Source: Candidatus Multivorans sp.
GTDB taxonomy: Bacteria; Acidobacteriota; Thermoanaerobaculia; Multivoradales; Multivoraceae
DNA length: 64,000 bases
Reading direction: 5' to 3'
NCBI GenBank assembly: GCA_965247095.1
Contig: OZ251997.1
Coordinates: forward strand, 2,432,001 to 2,496,000
The position numbers and the translations under genes were made by a program. Positions 22,683 through 29,844 of this stretch are shown piece by piece; within the stretch, counting starts at the first letter, position 1; each line of letters starts with the position of its first letter. The notes under the pieces were generated by a model. The model was given only the letters and a program-made list of their open reading frames with translations, searched no databases and was not told where the DNA came from.

Positions 22683-23570
22683 ATGACCATACAAGCCGCT
22701 TCCGAAACGCGCCCAGATTGGACGCCCACCGCAGCCCCCATCGAGATCCGACCTCTGACCCCCCATATCGGCGCGGAGATCGAGGGAGTCGACCTGTCCC
22801 AGCCGCTCTCGCAGTCGCAGAAGGACGACATCAGGCGGGTCTGGCTGGAGTGGCAGGTGCTGGTTTTTCGTGACCAGGAGCTCACCCGCGAGCAGCACAA
22901 GGACTTCGGCCGTTCCTTCGGCCCGCTGCACGTCCACCCGCTGCACAAGAGCTCCGAGTACAAGGGCGGGCACGACCCGGAAATCCTTGTCGTCAAGACC
23001 ACGCAGAAGTCCAGGTACACGGCGGGCGACGGTTGGCATACGGACGTGTCGTGCGACGAGGAACCGCCGATGGCGTCGATGCTCTACATCAAGGAGATTC
23101 CCGAGTGCGGCTCGGGAGGCGACACACTATTCGCCGACATGTACCGCGCTTATGAGACGCTATCGGAGCGGATGCAGCAGTTTCTCGAAGGTCTGGTAGC
23201 GGTGCATGACGGTGCGCTGCCCTACATCGGCAAGTACGGCTACGCAGCTCCCGATGGAAAGGCGTACCCGAAGACCGAGCACCCGGTGGTGATCCGCCAT
23301 CCCGAGACCGGCCGCAAGGCCCTGTTCGTCAACAGCGGCTTCACGTCGCACATCCGCGGTCTGCGTCGATGGGAGAGCCGGGGTCTACTCGACATGCTCT
23401 TCAGGCACATCGCTACAACAGTCTCGCTGACCTGTCGCGTGCGCTGGGAGCCCAACACGCTCACCCTCTGGGACAACCGCTGCACGCAGCATCATGCCGT
23501 GTGGGACTACTACCCGCAGTCGCGCTTCGGCGAGCGGGTCTCGATCGTGGGTGATCGGCCGGTCGCTTAA
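22683..23570 (+). CDS. TauD/TfdA Fe(II)/2-oxoglutarate dioxygenase, copy 1
   Basis: LTPHIGAEI, WHTDVS, GGDTLFADM, WDNRCTQH. Confidence 0.92.
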   Translation: MTIQAASETRPDWTPTAAPIEIRPLTPHIGAEIEGVDLSQPLSQSQKDDIRRVWLEWQVLVFRDQELTREQHKDFGRSFGPLHVHPLHKSSEYKGGHDPEILVVKTTQKSRYTAGDGWHTDVSCDEEPPMASMLYIKEIPECGSGGDTLFADMYRAYETLSERMQQFLEGLVAVHDGALPYIGKYGYAAPDGKAYPKTEHPVVIRHPETGRKALFVNSGFTSHIRGLRRWESRGLLDMLFRHIATTVSLTCRVRWEPNTLTLWDNRCTQHHAVWDYYPQSRFGERVSIVGDRPVA

Positions 23571-24588: not shown

Positions 24589-24665
24589 GTCCCCATCGTC
24601 TAGCCAGGTCAGGACTCCAGCCTTTCAAGCTGGCAACACGGGTTCGAATCCCGTTGGGGACACCA
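24589..24665 (+). tRNA. tRNA-Glu (anticodon TTC), CCA encoded
   Basis: Acceptor GTCCCCA/TGGGGAC; anticodon arm CCAGC-CTTTCAA-GCTGG; T arm ACGGG-TTCGAAT-CCCGT; upstream TATACT at 24537. Confidence 0.97.
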
Positions 24666-24970
24666 TCGCGCCTGCCGGCACGATGCTGGCCCCAGCGGGA
24701 TTCGGTCGCCGCGCCTCGCCTACGGCTCGGAGCGCTGGGTCGTATCCCCGTTTGGGGACACTGCGCTGCCGCCGGGCGCGATGCTGGCCCCAGCGGGATT
24801 CGGTCGCCGCGCCTCGCCTGCGGCTCGGAGCGCTGGGTCGTATCCCCGTTGGGGACACTGCGCTGCCGCCGGGCGCGATGCTGGCCCCAGCGGGATTCGG
24901 TCGCCGCGCCTCGCCTACGGCTCGGAGCGCTGGGTCGTATCCCGTTGGGGACGCCATCGCGCCCGCCGGC
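24666..24970 (+). repeat. Three tandem ~97-98-nt palindromic units derived from the tRNA 3' end
   Basis: CGATGCTGGCCCCAGCGGGATTCG starts at 24681, 24779, 24876; each unit ends with GGGTCGTATCCC(C)GTT(T)GGGGAC. Confidence 0.92.
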
Positions 24971-25007
24971 TGAGTCTCTCGGCGTCAGGCCGGTACAGAA
25001 CCCGCAC

Positions 25008-26018
25008 CTACTTCGGAGGCGTTGGGGGATTGGCCGTCCTGTCCATCAGGTCCACCAGTTGCAAACGGTACTCGTCCTCGACGGCAGCGGCAAAGTGAAT
25101 GGCAGAATCGCTCGACTCAATTCTCGCGAGTACGGCCTCGTAGGCGCGACGGCTCGGGAACCTCAGGATGCGATAGTCGTCCCAATCTCGCCCGTCGCCG
25201 ACCAGAACACCGGCGACTTCCGCTTTGAGCATCGGCTCCACGCCGGCCTCGTGAAGACTTCCCTCCAGAGATTTCCAAAACACGTCCATCGCTTCGCGTC
25301 CACTCCGTTGGGGTTCGCTGCTGCCTTCGGGGTACTCGGCGACGGCGCGATACTTCACCAGATGAAAGAGAGTAAAGGACGGGTCGTCGGCGGACGCCGG
25401 ATGGGGAACGTCGGCCGCGGTGACCGGAGGCTTATCCGAATACGTCCAATCTTCTTCGGGTATCGTGACGATGATCTGGGACGCGGCGAGGCTTGGGCCT
25501 TTGTGAACGACGGTCTCTTGGAAACCCGCGCTCGCCCTCATTTGCGCGATCTTCGCCCGACTCGGATACATGACGATTCCGACCCGATCCCACGTCGGAT
25601 CTTTGCCTACGAGCTGCGCTTCGACGCTGCCGGCGTAAACTAGCCCGCCGCCCACTTTCTCAACTTCCGGTAACGGGTTGTACAGCCTGTCGGCTTCTTC
25701 GCCCGTCAGGTTCGTCTCGCGCCCGTCGGGATATTCGGCCTTGTCCCGGTACTTCATGAGGTTGAGCATGTACAACATTCCGTCCTGAGCCGGCGGAACG
25801 ATCATGAAACTTGCCGCGTTCGGGTTCAGGGTCCCGAAGCTGGGATCGGGAGTTTGGGCCTTGCTGATCGCGCCGTCGCTGTCGGCGTCGCTAGCTTCGA
25901 AGACCTGCTGAGACGACTGCGCAAACACGGGCGGAGAGAACACCGCGGTCCCGATCGCCACGATGAACATCCCAAAGATCGAAAGAAAGTTGATAACGCT
26001 GGAGCGGTCGTCAGTCAT
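25008..26018 (-). CDS. Secreted tandem DUF1330-like protein with EF-hand-like loop
   Basis: RBS AGGAGA; MLNLMKYRDKAEYPDGR..WDRVGIVMYPSR and second repeat LVKYRAVAEYPEG..WDDYRILRFPSR; DADSDGAISK. Confidence 0.65.
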   Translation of the reverse strand: MTDDRSSVINFLSIFGMFIVAIGTAVFSPPVFAQSSQQVFEASDADSDGAISKAQTPDPSFGTLNPNAASFMIVPPAQDGMLYMLNLMKYRDKAEYPDGRETNLTGEEADRLYNPLPEVEKVGGGLVYAGSVEAQLVGKDPTWDRVGIVMYPSRAKIAQMRASAGFQETVVHKGPSLAASQIIVTIPEEDWTYSDKPPVTAADVPHPASADDPSFTLFHLVKYRAVAEYPEGSSEPQRSGREAMDVFWKSLEGSLHEAGVEPMLKAEVAGVLVGDGRDWDDYRILRFPSRRAYEAVLARIESSDSAIHFAAAVEDEYRLQLVDLMDRTANPPTPPK

Positions 26019-26119
26019 GATGATTCTCCTCTTGGTGATGGATCGTGAGCTGGCACCCGCCGCCGACCGGTGACCGCGTGGTGGGGGGGTGTAGCGACGA
26101 GATCGCGCAGGGCCGCAGC

Positions 26120-28042
26120 TCACGTCGCGCTGATCCTGCGCCCTGCGGCACTGGCGAATTCGTTGATCCCGATCTCGTGTCGAAGGTCCGCCGAGCGAAG
26201 ATCGAGCTCTTCGCCGAGGGGGATCCCGATTCCGTCGGCGATGCGAACCATGCGCTGAAAGTTCGCGATGACGGCGGCGACGTCGACGACCGCTGCATCT
26301 CCCAACGACTTCTGGACGGCGTCGCGGGCCTGTGTCACCTCCGGTGACCGGGCAACTACCGCATCCGCGTAGGCGATCAACTCTGCGCCATACGCCACCC
26401 CGGTCACTTGATCGCTGGCACCCCTAGTGATCGCCTCGAAGTCCACATCGCTGCCCTGACTGCTCGCCCGGAGCATCTGTGCGTGTGCGGTCGTTCAGTA
26501 GAAGCACTCGTTGAGGGCGGATAACCGGCCGGCGACCAACTCCGTCTGCCTGCGGTCCAGGCTGCCAGACTTTGGGTTGTGACCCGCCAGGTAGAAGGGA
26601 AACAGAAGGTCGAGCAGATTACGCAGGGCATCGGGCACGAGGGACATGGCCCGAATCACGTTCGGCACGAAGCGACGGGAAGCGGGAAGCCGATCGTAGA
26701 CGTCGGCTTCGTTCTCACCCTCGCCATCGTTGGGGATCATGGGAACCCAGGCGCCATCGTCGACGGCCTCCGCGGGTCGGTAGCGGGTAGGTTCACCGGC
26801 CCGCACCTCCGGGAGCGGAAGCAGCGGGAACTCCAGAGCGTCGCAGAAGGCGTCGATCCCCATCACCGTGCCCCAGTTGAGCATGGACCACATGGACTTC
26901 CGCTCCATCATCTTCTTGAAGTGGGCAGCACCGTTCATTTCCGGTACTCGTCCCACCCCTGGGCCCATGTCCGGGAGGACCGGGAAACCGGCTTCGACCC
27001 GGAAGTCGAAGCTCTGCGACCGAGGTAGACCGCACTCCACGTCGTCGCACGCTTGCCAACGGACCCTGCCGCTGATGTCGACATAGCGCTTGCCGTCGGC
27101 CTTCTGCATGGCTCTGCCGTTTTGTGCGATCGGTAGCCGCAGCACCACGTCGCCCTCGTAGACTTCGAGGGTGTCGCCGGACCCGGCGAGGGTCAACCTC
27201 GAAGTAGGCGGTGCAACCAGAGCGCGGCTGATGATGCCGGGAGCGTCGTCGACTTCGATCGTGGCAGCCACCAGGCCGTCCGGTACCGGCTCGCCGTAGA
27301 GATGCTGCCCTTCCGGTACCCGAAAGGTCGCGACGATCTCGTGAAAGACGCCCGAGAGCAGCCGGTCGGCGTCGAGGATCACGTCGACACTCACCTGCTC
27401 CGCCGGGCTTGCCGCGGGCTCCACCTCGAACCTCCGGCCGAGAGCAGCGTTGAGGAGCTGCTCGGGTCCGAATCTCGCACCAAAGTTGCGGTCGAAGAAC
27501 TTGGCGACGATGATGCCGTCGGCATCGATCGCGTAGGCCCCGGGAAAGGGGATCCCGTACCAGGGGTGCTCGTCCGGCGGGATGAGCGTGTTGAGGATCC
27601 CGAACGCTCGAATCACCTCGCTGTTCGGGTCCGACAGCATGGTGAAAGTGACCCCCATGGCATTGGAGTAGTCGGCGAGCGCATCGACCTCGTCATAGGT
27701 CAGGGTGTAGAGCTTGACCCCGGCGGCATCGAAAGCGGCCATTCCTCGCTCCAGCTCGACCAGCTGGGTTCGACAGGGGGGTCACCACACCGCTGATCGG
27801 GAGAAGACCAGGACCGCCGGTTGGCCGCGGCGGTCCGCATGCAGGTCGATCGAGCGACCGTGTTGGTCGATCGCGACCACCTCGGGTAGTCGCGTGCCGA
27901 CCTCGGGACCGTTCGGAAAGTCACCGAGGGGAATGCGACGGGATCTCGTGTTGGGAGCCAACGGCATGAGGAAGCCGTCGGCGTCGGCGAAGTAGCCGGG
28001 GGGGCCGGCCTCACGGCCTCGCGTATCTACTCTGATGTCCAT
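26120..28042 (-). CDS. Predicted 640-aa selenoprotein with two Sec: Prx/AhpC-like (UPPC) + DsbD-N-like + AhpD/CMD-like (CFYU)
   Basis: ORFs 27782-28042, 26495-27742 and 26120-26476 share one frame, separated only by TGA at 27782-84 (AVW-U-PPCRTQLVEL) and 26495-97 (NECFY-U-TTAHAQMLRAS). Confidence 0.8.
26461..26475 (-). promoter_or_regulatory. Bacterial SECIS-like hairpin 2
   Basis: TGCTC-CGGGC-GAGCA; G at loop position 2, 24 nt after UGA. Confidence 0.65.
27751..27767 (-). promoter_or_regulatory. Bacterial SECIS-like hairpin 1
   Basis: CCAGCT-GGTCG-AGCTGG; loop starts with G, 20 nt after UGA. Confidence 0.7.
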
Positions 28043-28145
28043 TCGCGCACTCTACAGCGCGACGAGAAGCAGCATCCCGGCGAGCTGCTCCACCCCTGGC
28101 GCCGCCGCCGCGCCCGGTAGCGCGGACGCTCTAGATGGACGCTAC

Positions 28146-28907: not shown

Positions 28908-28944
28908 CCTTCCTCCATGAGTGGACAGCGGAGCGTATGACAGG

Positions 28945-29844
28945 ATGACCGGCACCACGACCGTACAAGCCGCTTCCGAAACGCGCCCTGACTGGACGCC
29001 CGCCGCAGCCCCCATCGAAATCCGACCTCTGACGCCCCATATCGGCGCGGAGATCGAGGGAGTCGACCTGTCCCAGCCGCTCTCCCAGTCCCAGAAGGAC
29101 GACATCAGGCAAGCCTGGCTGGACTGGCAGGTGCTGGTCTTCCGTGACCAGGAACTCACCCGCGAGCAGCACAAGGACTTCGGCCGGTCCTTCGGCCCGC
29201 TGCAGGTCCACCCCCTGCACAAGAGCTCCGAGTACAAGGGCGGGCACGACCCGGAGATCCTCGTCGTCAAGACCACCCAGAAGTCGAAGTACACGGCGGG
29301 CGACGGCTGGCACACCGACGTGTCGTGCGACGAGAAGCCGCCGATGGCGTCGATGCTCTACATCAAGGAGATTCCCGAGTGCGGCTCGGGAGGCGACACG
29401 CTCTTCGCCGACATGTATCGCGCCTACGAGACCCTCTCGGAGCGGATGCAGCAGTTTCTCGAGGGTCTGATCGCGGTACATGACGGTGCGCTGCCCTACA
29501 TCGGCAAGTACGGCTACGCGGCTCCCGATGGAAAGGCGTACCCGAAGACCGAGCACCCGGTGGTGATCCGCCATCCCGAGACCGGCCGCAAGGCCCTGTT
29601 CGTCAACAGCGGTTTCACCTCGCATATCCGCGGTCTGCGACGATGGGAGAGCCGCGGTCTGCTCGACATGCTCTTCGAGCACATTGCCACCACAGTCTCT
29701 CTGACCTGTCGCGTGCGCTGGGAGCCCAATACGCTTACTCTCTGGGACAACCGCTGCACCCAGCATCATGCCGTGTGGGACTACTACCCGCAGTCGCGCT
29801 TCGGCGAGCGGGTCTCGATTGTGGGTGACCGGCCGGTCGCCTAG
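28945..29844 (+). CDS. TauD/TfdA dioxygenase, copy 2
   Basis: Nearly identical protein to 22683-23570 with scattered substitutions. Confidence 0.92.
   Translation: MTGTTTVQAASETRPDWTPAAAPIEIRPLTPHIGAEIEGVDLSQPLSQSQKDDIRQAWLDWQVLVFRDQELTREQHKDFGRSFGPLQVHPLHKSSEYKGGHDPEILVVKTTQKSKYTAGDGWHTDVSCDEKPPMASMLYIKEIPECGSGGDTLFADMYRAYETLSERMQQFLEGLIAVHDGALPYIGKYGYAAPDGKAYPKTEHPVVIRHPETGRKALFVNSGFTSHIRGLRRWESRGLLDMLFEHIATTVSLTCRVRWEPNTLTLWDNRCTQHHAVWDYYPQSRFGERVSIVGDRPVA

Follow-up and report, generated by a model that had tools for sequence, protein, structure and literature searches.

Two Adjacent Selenoprotein Genes Probably Joined by a Recent Deletion in Candidatus Multivorans

Organization of the Fused Reading Frame

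The locus described here is a single reading frame in which two selenoprotein genes, separate in related bacteria, lie joined. It is found in Candidatus Multivorans sp. (Acidobacteriota; GenBank assembly GCA_965247095.1, contig OZ251997.1), within a stretch of 64,000 nucleotides (positions 2,432,001 to 2,496,000 of the contig) that is referred to below as the window. The frame occupies positions 26120..28042 on the minus strand of the window, to which all of its parts described below belong, and yields, when TGA is translated as selenocysteine (Sec, U), 640 codons followed by a TGA stop. The only stops inside it are two TGAs, at codons 87 and 516, and in a mechanical list of open reading frames (ORFs) it appears as three entries, 27782..28042 (86 amino acids, aa), 26495..27742 (415 aa), and 26120..26476 (118 aa). 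An initial annotation of this DNA had taken the three ORFs for one minus-strand frame broken by two TGAs and had assigned to it Prx-like, DsbD-N-like, and AhpD-like domains. Both proposals are borne out, the first by translation with TGA as Sec and the second by profile matches to AhpC-TSA (residues 48-180), DsbD_N (residues 234-346), and CMD/AhpD-related (residues 392-631) models. The single frame contains three redox motifs, U87-x-x-C90, C332-x4-C337, and C513-x-x-U516.

The first and larger part of the frame corresponds to one gene of the relatives (gene 1). It comprises a peroxiredoxin-like (Prx-like) AhpC/TSA domain of thioredoxin fold (27503..27901; Pfam PF00578, 85.6 bits against a cut-off of 26) and a DsbD_N-like domain (27005..27343; Pfam PF11412, 33 bits against 25). 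The UGA of codon 87, at 27782..27784, specifies the Sec of W-U-P-P-C (RSAVW-U-PPC), and the Cys pair C332-x4-C337 lies at 27032-27049; residues Q330, C332, C337, and P340 of the DsbD_N-like domain are invariant among the 12 sequences of alignment A2. Gene 1 would encode a cytoplasmic thioredoxin-fold protein whose center, Sec87-x-x-Cys90, is joined to a DsbD_N domain bearing Cys332-x4-Cys337, as in all its relatives. The protein reaches no curated NCBIfam cut-off (the best is SelL_rel_redox, 41.2 bits against 120), and the Prx-like-DsbD_N family, having no curated NCBIfam model, could therefore merit one. It had initially been labeled a Sec peroxidase, a label that is not secure, as the UxxC of its WUPPC motif is thioredoxin-like and the best of the NCBIfam peroxidase models gives the Prx-like part 37.3 bits against a cut-off of 140. 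According to the 2005 Sargasso Sea paper, Prx-like selenoproteins carry just such a thioredoxin-like UxxC instead of the TxxU of Sec-peroxiredoxins. Genes of the Prx-like(UxxC)-DsbD_N type are common in the phylum, with matches in 50 of 301 genomes (E up to 1e-30); this count, and those of 29/30 and 27/27 given below, include the unpublished genome G063, without which they become 49/300, 28/29, and 26/26, with the conclusions unaffected. The genome of the window (G000), a single contig of 4.62 Mb, has one Prx-DsbD_N gene and no second copy, and this part of the frame, the sole such gene of its genome, presumably still works.

The remainder of the frame derives from a second gene (gene 2). Residues 392-631 (26150..26869) match NF041238 ‘AhpD_rel_CFYUT’, the alkylhydroperoxidase-related (seleno)protein family of NCBIfam, with 267.4 bits against a cut-off of 175; the match covers only profile positions 111-357 of 357 and is thus short of a full-length equivalog match. 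A Pfam CMD (AhpD-type) match lies at residues 492-527, and nothing is missing from the C-terminal AhpD core, which carries the CxxU motif (a TIGR01926-like region, residues 432-608). The UGA of codon 516, at 26495..26497, specifies the Sec of C-F-Y-U-T (NECFY-U-TTAH). Gene 2 would formerly have encoded a two-domain AhpD-related protein with Cys513-x-x-Sec516 in its C-terminal core. An AlphaFold model of the intact protein from the relative G010, of high confidence (predicted local distance difference test, pLDDT, 90.8; predicted template modeling score, pTM, 0.92), has six helices within residues 15-133, followed by a linker and a C-terminal helical core. Foldseek matched one AhpD core of about 190 residues in this model (2prr_C, E 3.3e-4; 6k40_A, E 3.8e-4) and gave a weak whole-length match (E 0.05) to Sestrin2, a double AhpD-fold protein.

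Selenocysteine Codons and the Machinery That Decodes Them

Homolog alignments place both TGAs at Cys positions of redox motifs, as had been claimed from the sequence. In the U87 column, Cys is present in 9 of 11 full-length database homologs, the other two having W and S, and the flanking C90 and W86 are invariant (alignment A2). In the U516 column, 9 of 10 full-length homologs have Cys, and the tenth, with G, also lacks the first Cys of the motif (alignment A3). The homolog P0035 terminates exactly at CFY, before the position of U516, and many matches in an exhaustive protein search start at query residues 92-111, the kind of piece that gene callers yield from Sec-type genes. At the level of DNA, TGA occupies the codon-87 position in 20 of 20 Prx-type loci and the codon-516 position in 24 of 24 AhpD-type loci of the genus. 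Beyond the genus, the former is TGA in 29 of 30 Prx-DsbD_N loci of the phylum (the window itself included) and the latter in 76 of 80 AhpD_rel loci from many phyla, sampled as one genome per species, the remaining four being one Cys-type locus and three not resolved by the patterns used.

Each UGA is followed by a hairpin resembling the bacterial selenocysteine insertion sequence (SECIS), located where the initial annotation had placed it. Hairpin 1 (27751..27767) has a 6-bp stem and the form CCAGCU-GGUCG-AGCUGG, its loop beginning 20 nt past UGA87; hairpin 2 (26461..26475) has a 5-bp core stem, UGCUC/GAGCA, and the loop CGGGC, which begins 24 nt past UGA516. Both have G among the first two loop positions. 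Relative to shuffled sequences their folding energies give z = -0.10 and z = -0.49, respectively, neither beyond chance in G+C-rich sequence, so that folding energy proves nothing here and the support comes from comparison. All six pairs of hairpin 1 form in 27 of 27 distinct Sec-type sequences of the phylum, with a closing pair that is C:G in six and G:C in 21, and the stem is invariant at synonymous sites even across paralogs that are 39% identical as proteins; the sole Cys-type Prx-DsbD_N locus lacks it. For hairpin 2, the five core pairs form in 59-64 of 64 distinct sequences from many phyla, and the second loop base is always G. Compensatory changes are found, C:G to U:A in four loci and U:A to C:G in two, and in the sole Cys-type AhpD_rel locus the codons are different and the stem cannot form. 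A search of Rfam at E up to 1 assigned neither hairpin to a family and gave a lone chance match to a microRNA model (E 0.59).

The genes for Sec decoding, whose presence in the genome the initial annotation had proposed to check, are all there and above their cut-offs: selA (439.5 bits), selB (339.3), selD (260), and tRNA-Sec (74.1), the last also called by ARAGORN as tRNA-SeC with anticodon tca. From Cys alignment, TGA conservation, hairpin covariation, and the Sec machinery of the genome, as read in sequence data, both TGAs are genuine selenocysteine codons. It is highly improbable that they are ordinary stops, in which case the locus would consist of three unrelated small ORFs, or of a dead gene, and the fusion would be an assembly error. 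The folding energies, no better than those of shuffles, would be in keeping with such stops. Against them stand the retention of TGA at Cys columns over dozens of genomes and several phyla together with hairpins showing compensatory changes, the complete Sec machinery, a curated selenoprotein family matched above its cut-off, and a junction that is bridged by contigs of four studies.

The same genome offers further observations on selenium metabolism. Its SelD carries an N-terminal pyridine nucleotide-disulfide oxidoreductase domain (Pyr_redox_2 + AIRS, in an 812-aa ORF; L010:94-2532, G000:C1), the same Ndh-SelD form that the 2008 ocean metagenome paper describes as common in marine bacteria. 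Two other redox genes with an in-frame TGA are present, a full-length AhpD_rel paralog (C1:5995-6687) and a Prx-like gene that shares 29% identity with the query (C1:776238-776741). Among 40 relatives searched with the read-through protein, nearly all matches likewise contain one TGA, and the genus looks rich in thiol-redox selenoproteins.

The Deletion and Its Junction

In that search, the relatives with the closest orthologs (G010, G021, and G012; 92-93% identity) gave two separate matches about 390 nt apart, one to residues 1-383 and the other to residues 391-640 of the fused protein. The initial annotation had raised the question of whether relatives carry fused or separate genes. Both states exist: the fused frame recurs in two further loci (L068 and L069, described below), and separate genes are found in four relatives at 91-93% identity, namely G010, G021, G012, and the genus member G232. 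Alignment of the DNA shows that in the unfused relatives gene 1 ends in ...KKM(M/I)(E/D)RRK and a TAG stop, and that gene 2 starts with MTRAIF... 16-25 nt further on and runs for 365-372 codons. Between anchors shared by both arrangements the window has 31 nt, compared with 392 nt in G012 and 401 nt in G010 and G021. The 361-370 nt lost run from the final codons of gene 1 and its stop through the spacer into gene 2, of which the start and the first 122 codons are gone; the frame is kept. Past the junction, the frame picks up at residue 123 of the intact AhpD-related protein, in agreement with the 110 profile positions missing from the NF041238 match.

The junction itself had been predicted near 26890 (ERK|SMWSML), and takes the form of a 31-nt filler at 26870..26900 (...K-SMWSMLNWG-T...) that replaces the 392-401 nt of the relatives and matches neither parental gene. 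No second copy of the filler was found across the genome at up to 3 mismatches. Its derivation from the deleted region was also considered, and the likeness seen by eye (12/16) is too weak to call. The caveat of the initial annotation, that the AhpD part had lost its N-terminus through an in-frame deletion joining two selenoprotein genes, proved exactly right on alignment to the relatives. In structural terms, the deletion removes five helices and half of the sixth from the first domain and leaves the catalytic CxxU core complete; the part lost is conserved across the family and in this subgroup contains a CxxC pair.

As a consequence of this arrangement, ribosomes that insert Sec at codon 87 would now continue into the AhpD remnant, and the expected product would be the chain of 640 residues where Sec is inserted a second time and, where it is not, a chain that stops at codon 515. 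Another outcome, which we regard as improbable, is that the remnant is translated separately from an internal start, the ATG of codon 384, so that two proteins persist. The junction does create a GGAG followed by a 9-nt spacer and this ATG, and with such a start, translation of the remnant would no longer depend on Sec insertion at codon 87. The proposal, however, comes from inspection of the sequence, its product would still miss residues 1-122 of the conserved first domain, and the upstream frame has no stop, so that ribosomes translating gene 1 pass through this start.

Gene 2 can also be missing altogether. In three genomes (G002, G222, and G201) the orthologous gene 1 is present and gene 2 is absent beside it, and gene 2 is therefore dispensable there. 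In G002 (L026, G002:C5), where the AhpD_rel gene is cleanly missing, gene 1 additionally has a frameshift near codon 347. This genome represents a second, independent route of cassette decay, unless the frameshift is an error of the draft assembly.

Distribution and Age of the Fused Form

The junction of the window recurs unchanged in loci L068 and L069 (98-99% identity), and so do its three TGAs, those of codons 87, 516, and 641. Their genes differ from that of the window in at most 15 codons, and their flanks are 95-99% identical. Contigs from public sequencing runs X1, X10, X11, and X13, belonging to four studies, span positions 26755-27214 or more without gaps. The identical junction in these two loci and the bridging contigs of the four runs establish that the fusion is not an assembly error. 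Among the public runs listed as carrying the locus there was no RNA run.

The fused form is nonetheless very restricted. Among orthologs of at least 88% identity, it occurs only in a single, very shallow clade formed by G000, L068, and L069, and among the 30 Prx-DsbD_N loci of the phylum the window alone has it. Adjacency of the two genes is itself rare, a Prx-DsbD_N gene lying at most 2.5 kb upstream in 5 of the 80 AhpD_rel loci; in two of these (L068 and L069) the genes are fused, and in three (L062, L063, and L064, taken to be the loci of G021, G010, and G012) they are separate. A word-based search of 5.8 billion proteins gave two matches, neither of them fused. None of the best 150 of 4308 matches in 1.84 billion representatives spans the junction, their best stretches lying within residues 18-388 or 391-639. 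Those among the same best 150 that matched in several stretches are 77-379 aa, except P0013, which on alignment is a tandem Prx-DsbD_N protein.

That genes 1 and 2 are functionally linked is suggested by two observations, their position side by side in four relatives and a Prx-like/AhpD-like neighbor pair reported from ocean metagenome reads. The suggestion is weakened by the rarity of the arrangement and by the three genomes in which gene 1 stands alone.

Fate of the AhpD-Related Half

A recent deletion probably joined two adjacent selenoprotein genes of known families, leaving an AhpD half that is most likely a passenger on the way to decay. This remnant retains only half a helix of the six in its first domain, and its former role may be covered by the unlinked AhpD_rel paralog noted above, which the genome keeps in full length, which is 43% identical to it, and which also contains a TGA. 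Evidence on selection comes from two depths of time. Along the whole branch leading to the genome of the window, compared with G012 and G010, the Prx-DsbD_N part shows 14 synonymous and 12 non-synonymous changes, a ratio of non-synonymous to synonymous change per site (pN/pS) of 0.29; most of this branch is older than the deletion. Variants among the fusion-bearing sequences, in contrast, must postdate it. In the remnant these number five, all non-synonymous (I396M, P453S, R498T, V569A, and G625R), and the Prx-DsbD_N part has 10 that are non-synonymous and eight that are synonymous, an ATG/GTG difference at the start being left out. Five of five non-synonymous has P = 0.003-0.02 at between-species ratios. 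This pattern is a hint of relaxed constraint, no more.

Several observations weigh against decay of the remnant. On the whole branch its own changes are 18 synonymous and eight non-synonymous (pN/pS 0.15), which is not relaxed. Under neutrality the five-to-none pattern has P = 0.23, the contrast with the Prx-DsbD_N part is not significant (Fisher one-sided p = 0.089), and R498T comes from a contig of depth 3. The 257 codons of the remnant contain no stop or frameshift, and UGA516 with its hairpin has stayed intact throughout the three genomes and four runs, a state equally to be expected of a functional fusion. The CxxU core is complete and stand-alone AhpD cores of about 190 residues are known, so that the remnant might fold and act. 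In addition, runs X11 and X1 share private variants of L068 and L069 and may be the same data, and hence not independent of them.

Some of these features would also be expected of a new enzyme maintained by selection, in which a CxxU AhpD core is tethered to a Prx-like/DsbD_N relay as a self-contained chain with three redox centers and two selenocysteines, the lost N-terminal domain being dispensable. If this were so, the AhpD core would take over the role of a separate partner, and the lineage would stand at the birth of a multi-Sec architecture with two SECIS elements decoded in each pass. In its favor, neither the frame nor either UGA or hairpin is damaged in any of the three genomes and four runs, and the C-terminal AhpD core is retained whole. 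The two genes are operonic neighbors in four relatives, and with the Prx-like/AhpD-like neighbors of ocean metagenomes, a fusion of neighbors would fit a functional link. We nevertheless consider such an enzyme unlikely. The fusion is limited to one clade with less than 1% divergence, a Prx-DsbD_N gene precedes few AhpD_rel loci, and three orthologous Prx-DsbD_N genes stand alone. The deletion interrupts a helix and eliminates a conserved domain together with its CxxC pair, the five post-fusion changes of the remnant are without exception non-synonymous, and the fused form was not seen in the two large protein searches (the 2 matches of one and the best 150 of 4308 of the other). The idea of an evolved ‘polyprotein’ coupling a Sec peroxidase to a Sec reductase is accordingly not supported, with one shallow clade fused, four relatives having separate genes, and three having gene 1 alone.

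The fusion is thus probably a curiosity of gene decay, young and lineage-restricted, rather than a new kind of enzyme. It constitutes a small natural experiment in which a single mRNA now needs two SelB/SECIS-dependent insertions for its full reading, and the fate of the truncated AhpD half can be traced in related strains. The locus also bears on annotation in two ways: standard gene calling cuts one frame into three ORFs and conceals two selenoproteins, and reading through TGA without comparison would overstate a deletion product as a designed polyprotein.

Surroundings of the Locus

A separate gene lies directly downstream of the fused gene, at 25008-26018 on the minus strand, with a likely ATG about 100 nt past the fused-gene stop, preceded by GGAG. 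Its product has an N-terminal hydrophobic segment and two similar halves, and no Pfam or NCBIfam match was found for it. Further along, a tRNA-Glu gene (ttc; 24589-24665, plus strand) is followed by three 97-nt tandem repeats (24649-24940), each opening with a copy of the tRNA 3' end; in sequence, these repeats look like stacked attachment-site remnants. G012 lacks the roughly 1.3 kb that separates the repeats from the fused gene (about 24795-26110), a pattern suggestive of an insertion hot spot. Two TauD-family dioxygenase genes (22683-23570 and 28921-29844), in direct orientation, 6274 nt apart, and 93% identical over their first 300 nt, bracket a segment containing the fused gene, a short-chain dehydrogenase/reductase (SDR) gene, and a BrnT-like toxin ORF. 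A TonB-dependent receptor was also identified and speaks against the actinobacterial origin that the G+C content had suggested.

On its upstream side, the fused gene is preceded by a spacer (28069-28145) that is 77 nt long in the window and is replaced by 17 other letters in contigs of all four runs examined. L068 and L069 match the window in this spacer only from 28079 downward and again above 28140. The likely promoter region thus exists in a version peculiar to the strain of the window.

Comparison With Known Systems

In mycobacteria, the peroxiredoxin AhpC is reduced by AhpD, a CxxC protein encoded beside it. The unfused relatives likewise have a Prx-fold gene followed by an AhpD-fold gene, here with CxxU; the proteins, however, belong to other subfamilies on both sides, and in the present case adjacency is rare (5/80 loci). 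A second parallel is provided by the DsbD/ScsB relay, in which the Cys pair of an N-terminal immunoglobulin-like domain passes electrons to thioredoxin-fold partners. Common to both is a DsbD_N domain with a conserved Cys pair and a thioredoxin-fold redox center in one chain, whereas the protein of the window lacks a membrane domain and its clade lacks a signal peptide; several distant Cys-type Prx-DsbD_N homologs have hydrophobic N-termini. By analogy with this relay, the UxxC center and the DsbD_N Cys pair may exchange electrons within the chain, as a thiol-disulfide/selenenylsulfide relay.

Both halves of the frame, the Prx-like UxxC protein with DsbD_N and the NF041238 protein, belong to selenoprotein kinds that are already described. 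The 2005 Sargasso Sea paper presents the same type of evidence for these families and includes a ‘hypothetical protein 1’ with a CxxU motif, which the 2026 review equates with NF041238. To call the protein ‘hidden’ and new, as had been done at the outset, is accordingly too strong, NF041238 being a curated (seleno)protein family and the Prx-like UxxC type having been in print since 2005. With the Prx-like thiol:disulfide oxidoreductase selenoproteins (PF00578, UxxC) of Zhang, Gladyshev and co-workers, gene 1 shares the AhpC/TSA fold, a UxxC with Sec at a Cys column, and a hairpin directly 3' of it; the subfamily of the window differs in always having a C-terminal DsbD_N domain with a Cx4C pair. 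No account of a Prx-DsbD_N selenoprotein was found in the literature searched, which did not cover the supplement of the 2008 paper on other Prx-like fusions.

Like the members of NF041238, the AhpD-related half has C-F-Y-U-T with TGA, and past its UGA the same hairpin as 76 other Sec-type loci. The copy in the window differs in lacking the first 122 residues, with five and a half helices and the CxxC pair, and in being joined to another protein. Double and triple selenoproteins made by fusion are, according to the 2026 review, known from families such as NF041537, an arsenite methyltransferase/AhpD domain selenoprotein with UxxG, CxxU, and 3 Sec. These proteins and the fused frame have in common more than one Sec codon per frame, each in a redox motif of its own and one of them in an AhpD-type domain. 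They are set apart by the fact that those families have models of their own, whereas the fusion in the window is limited to three near-identical genomes, with one partner truncated.

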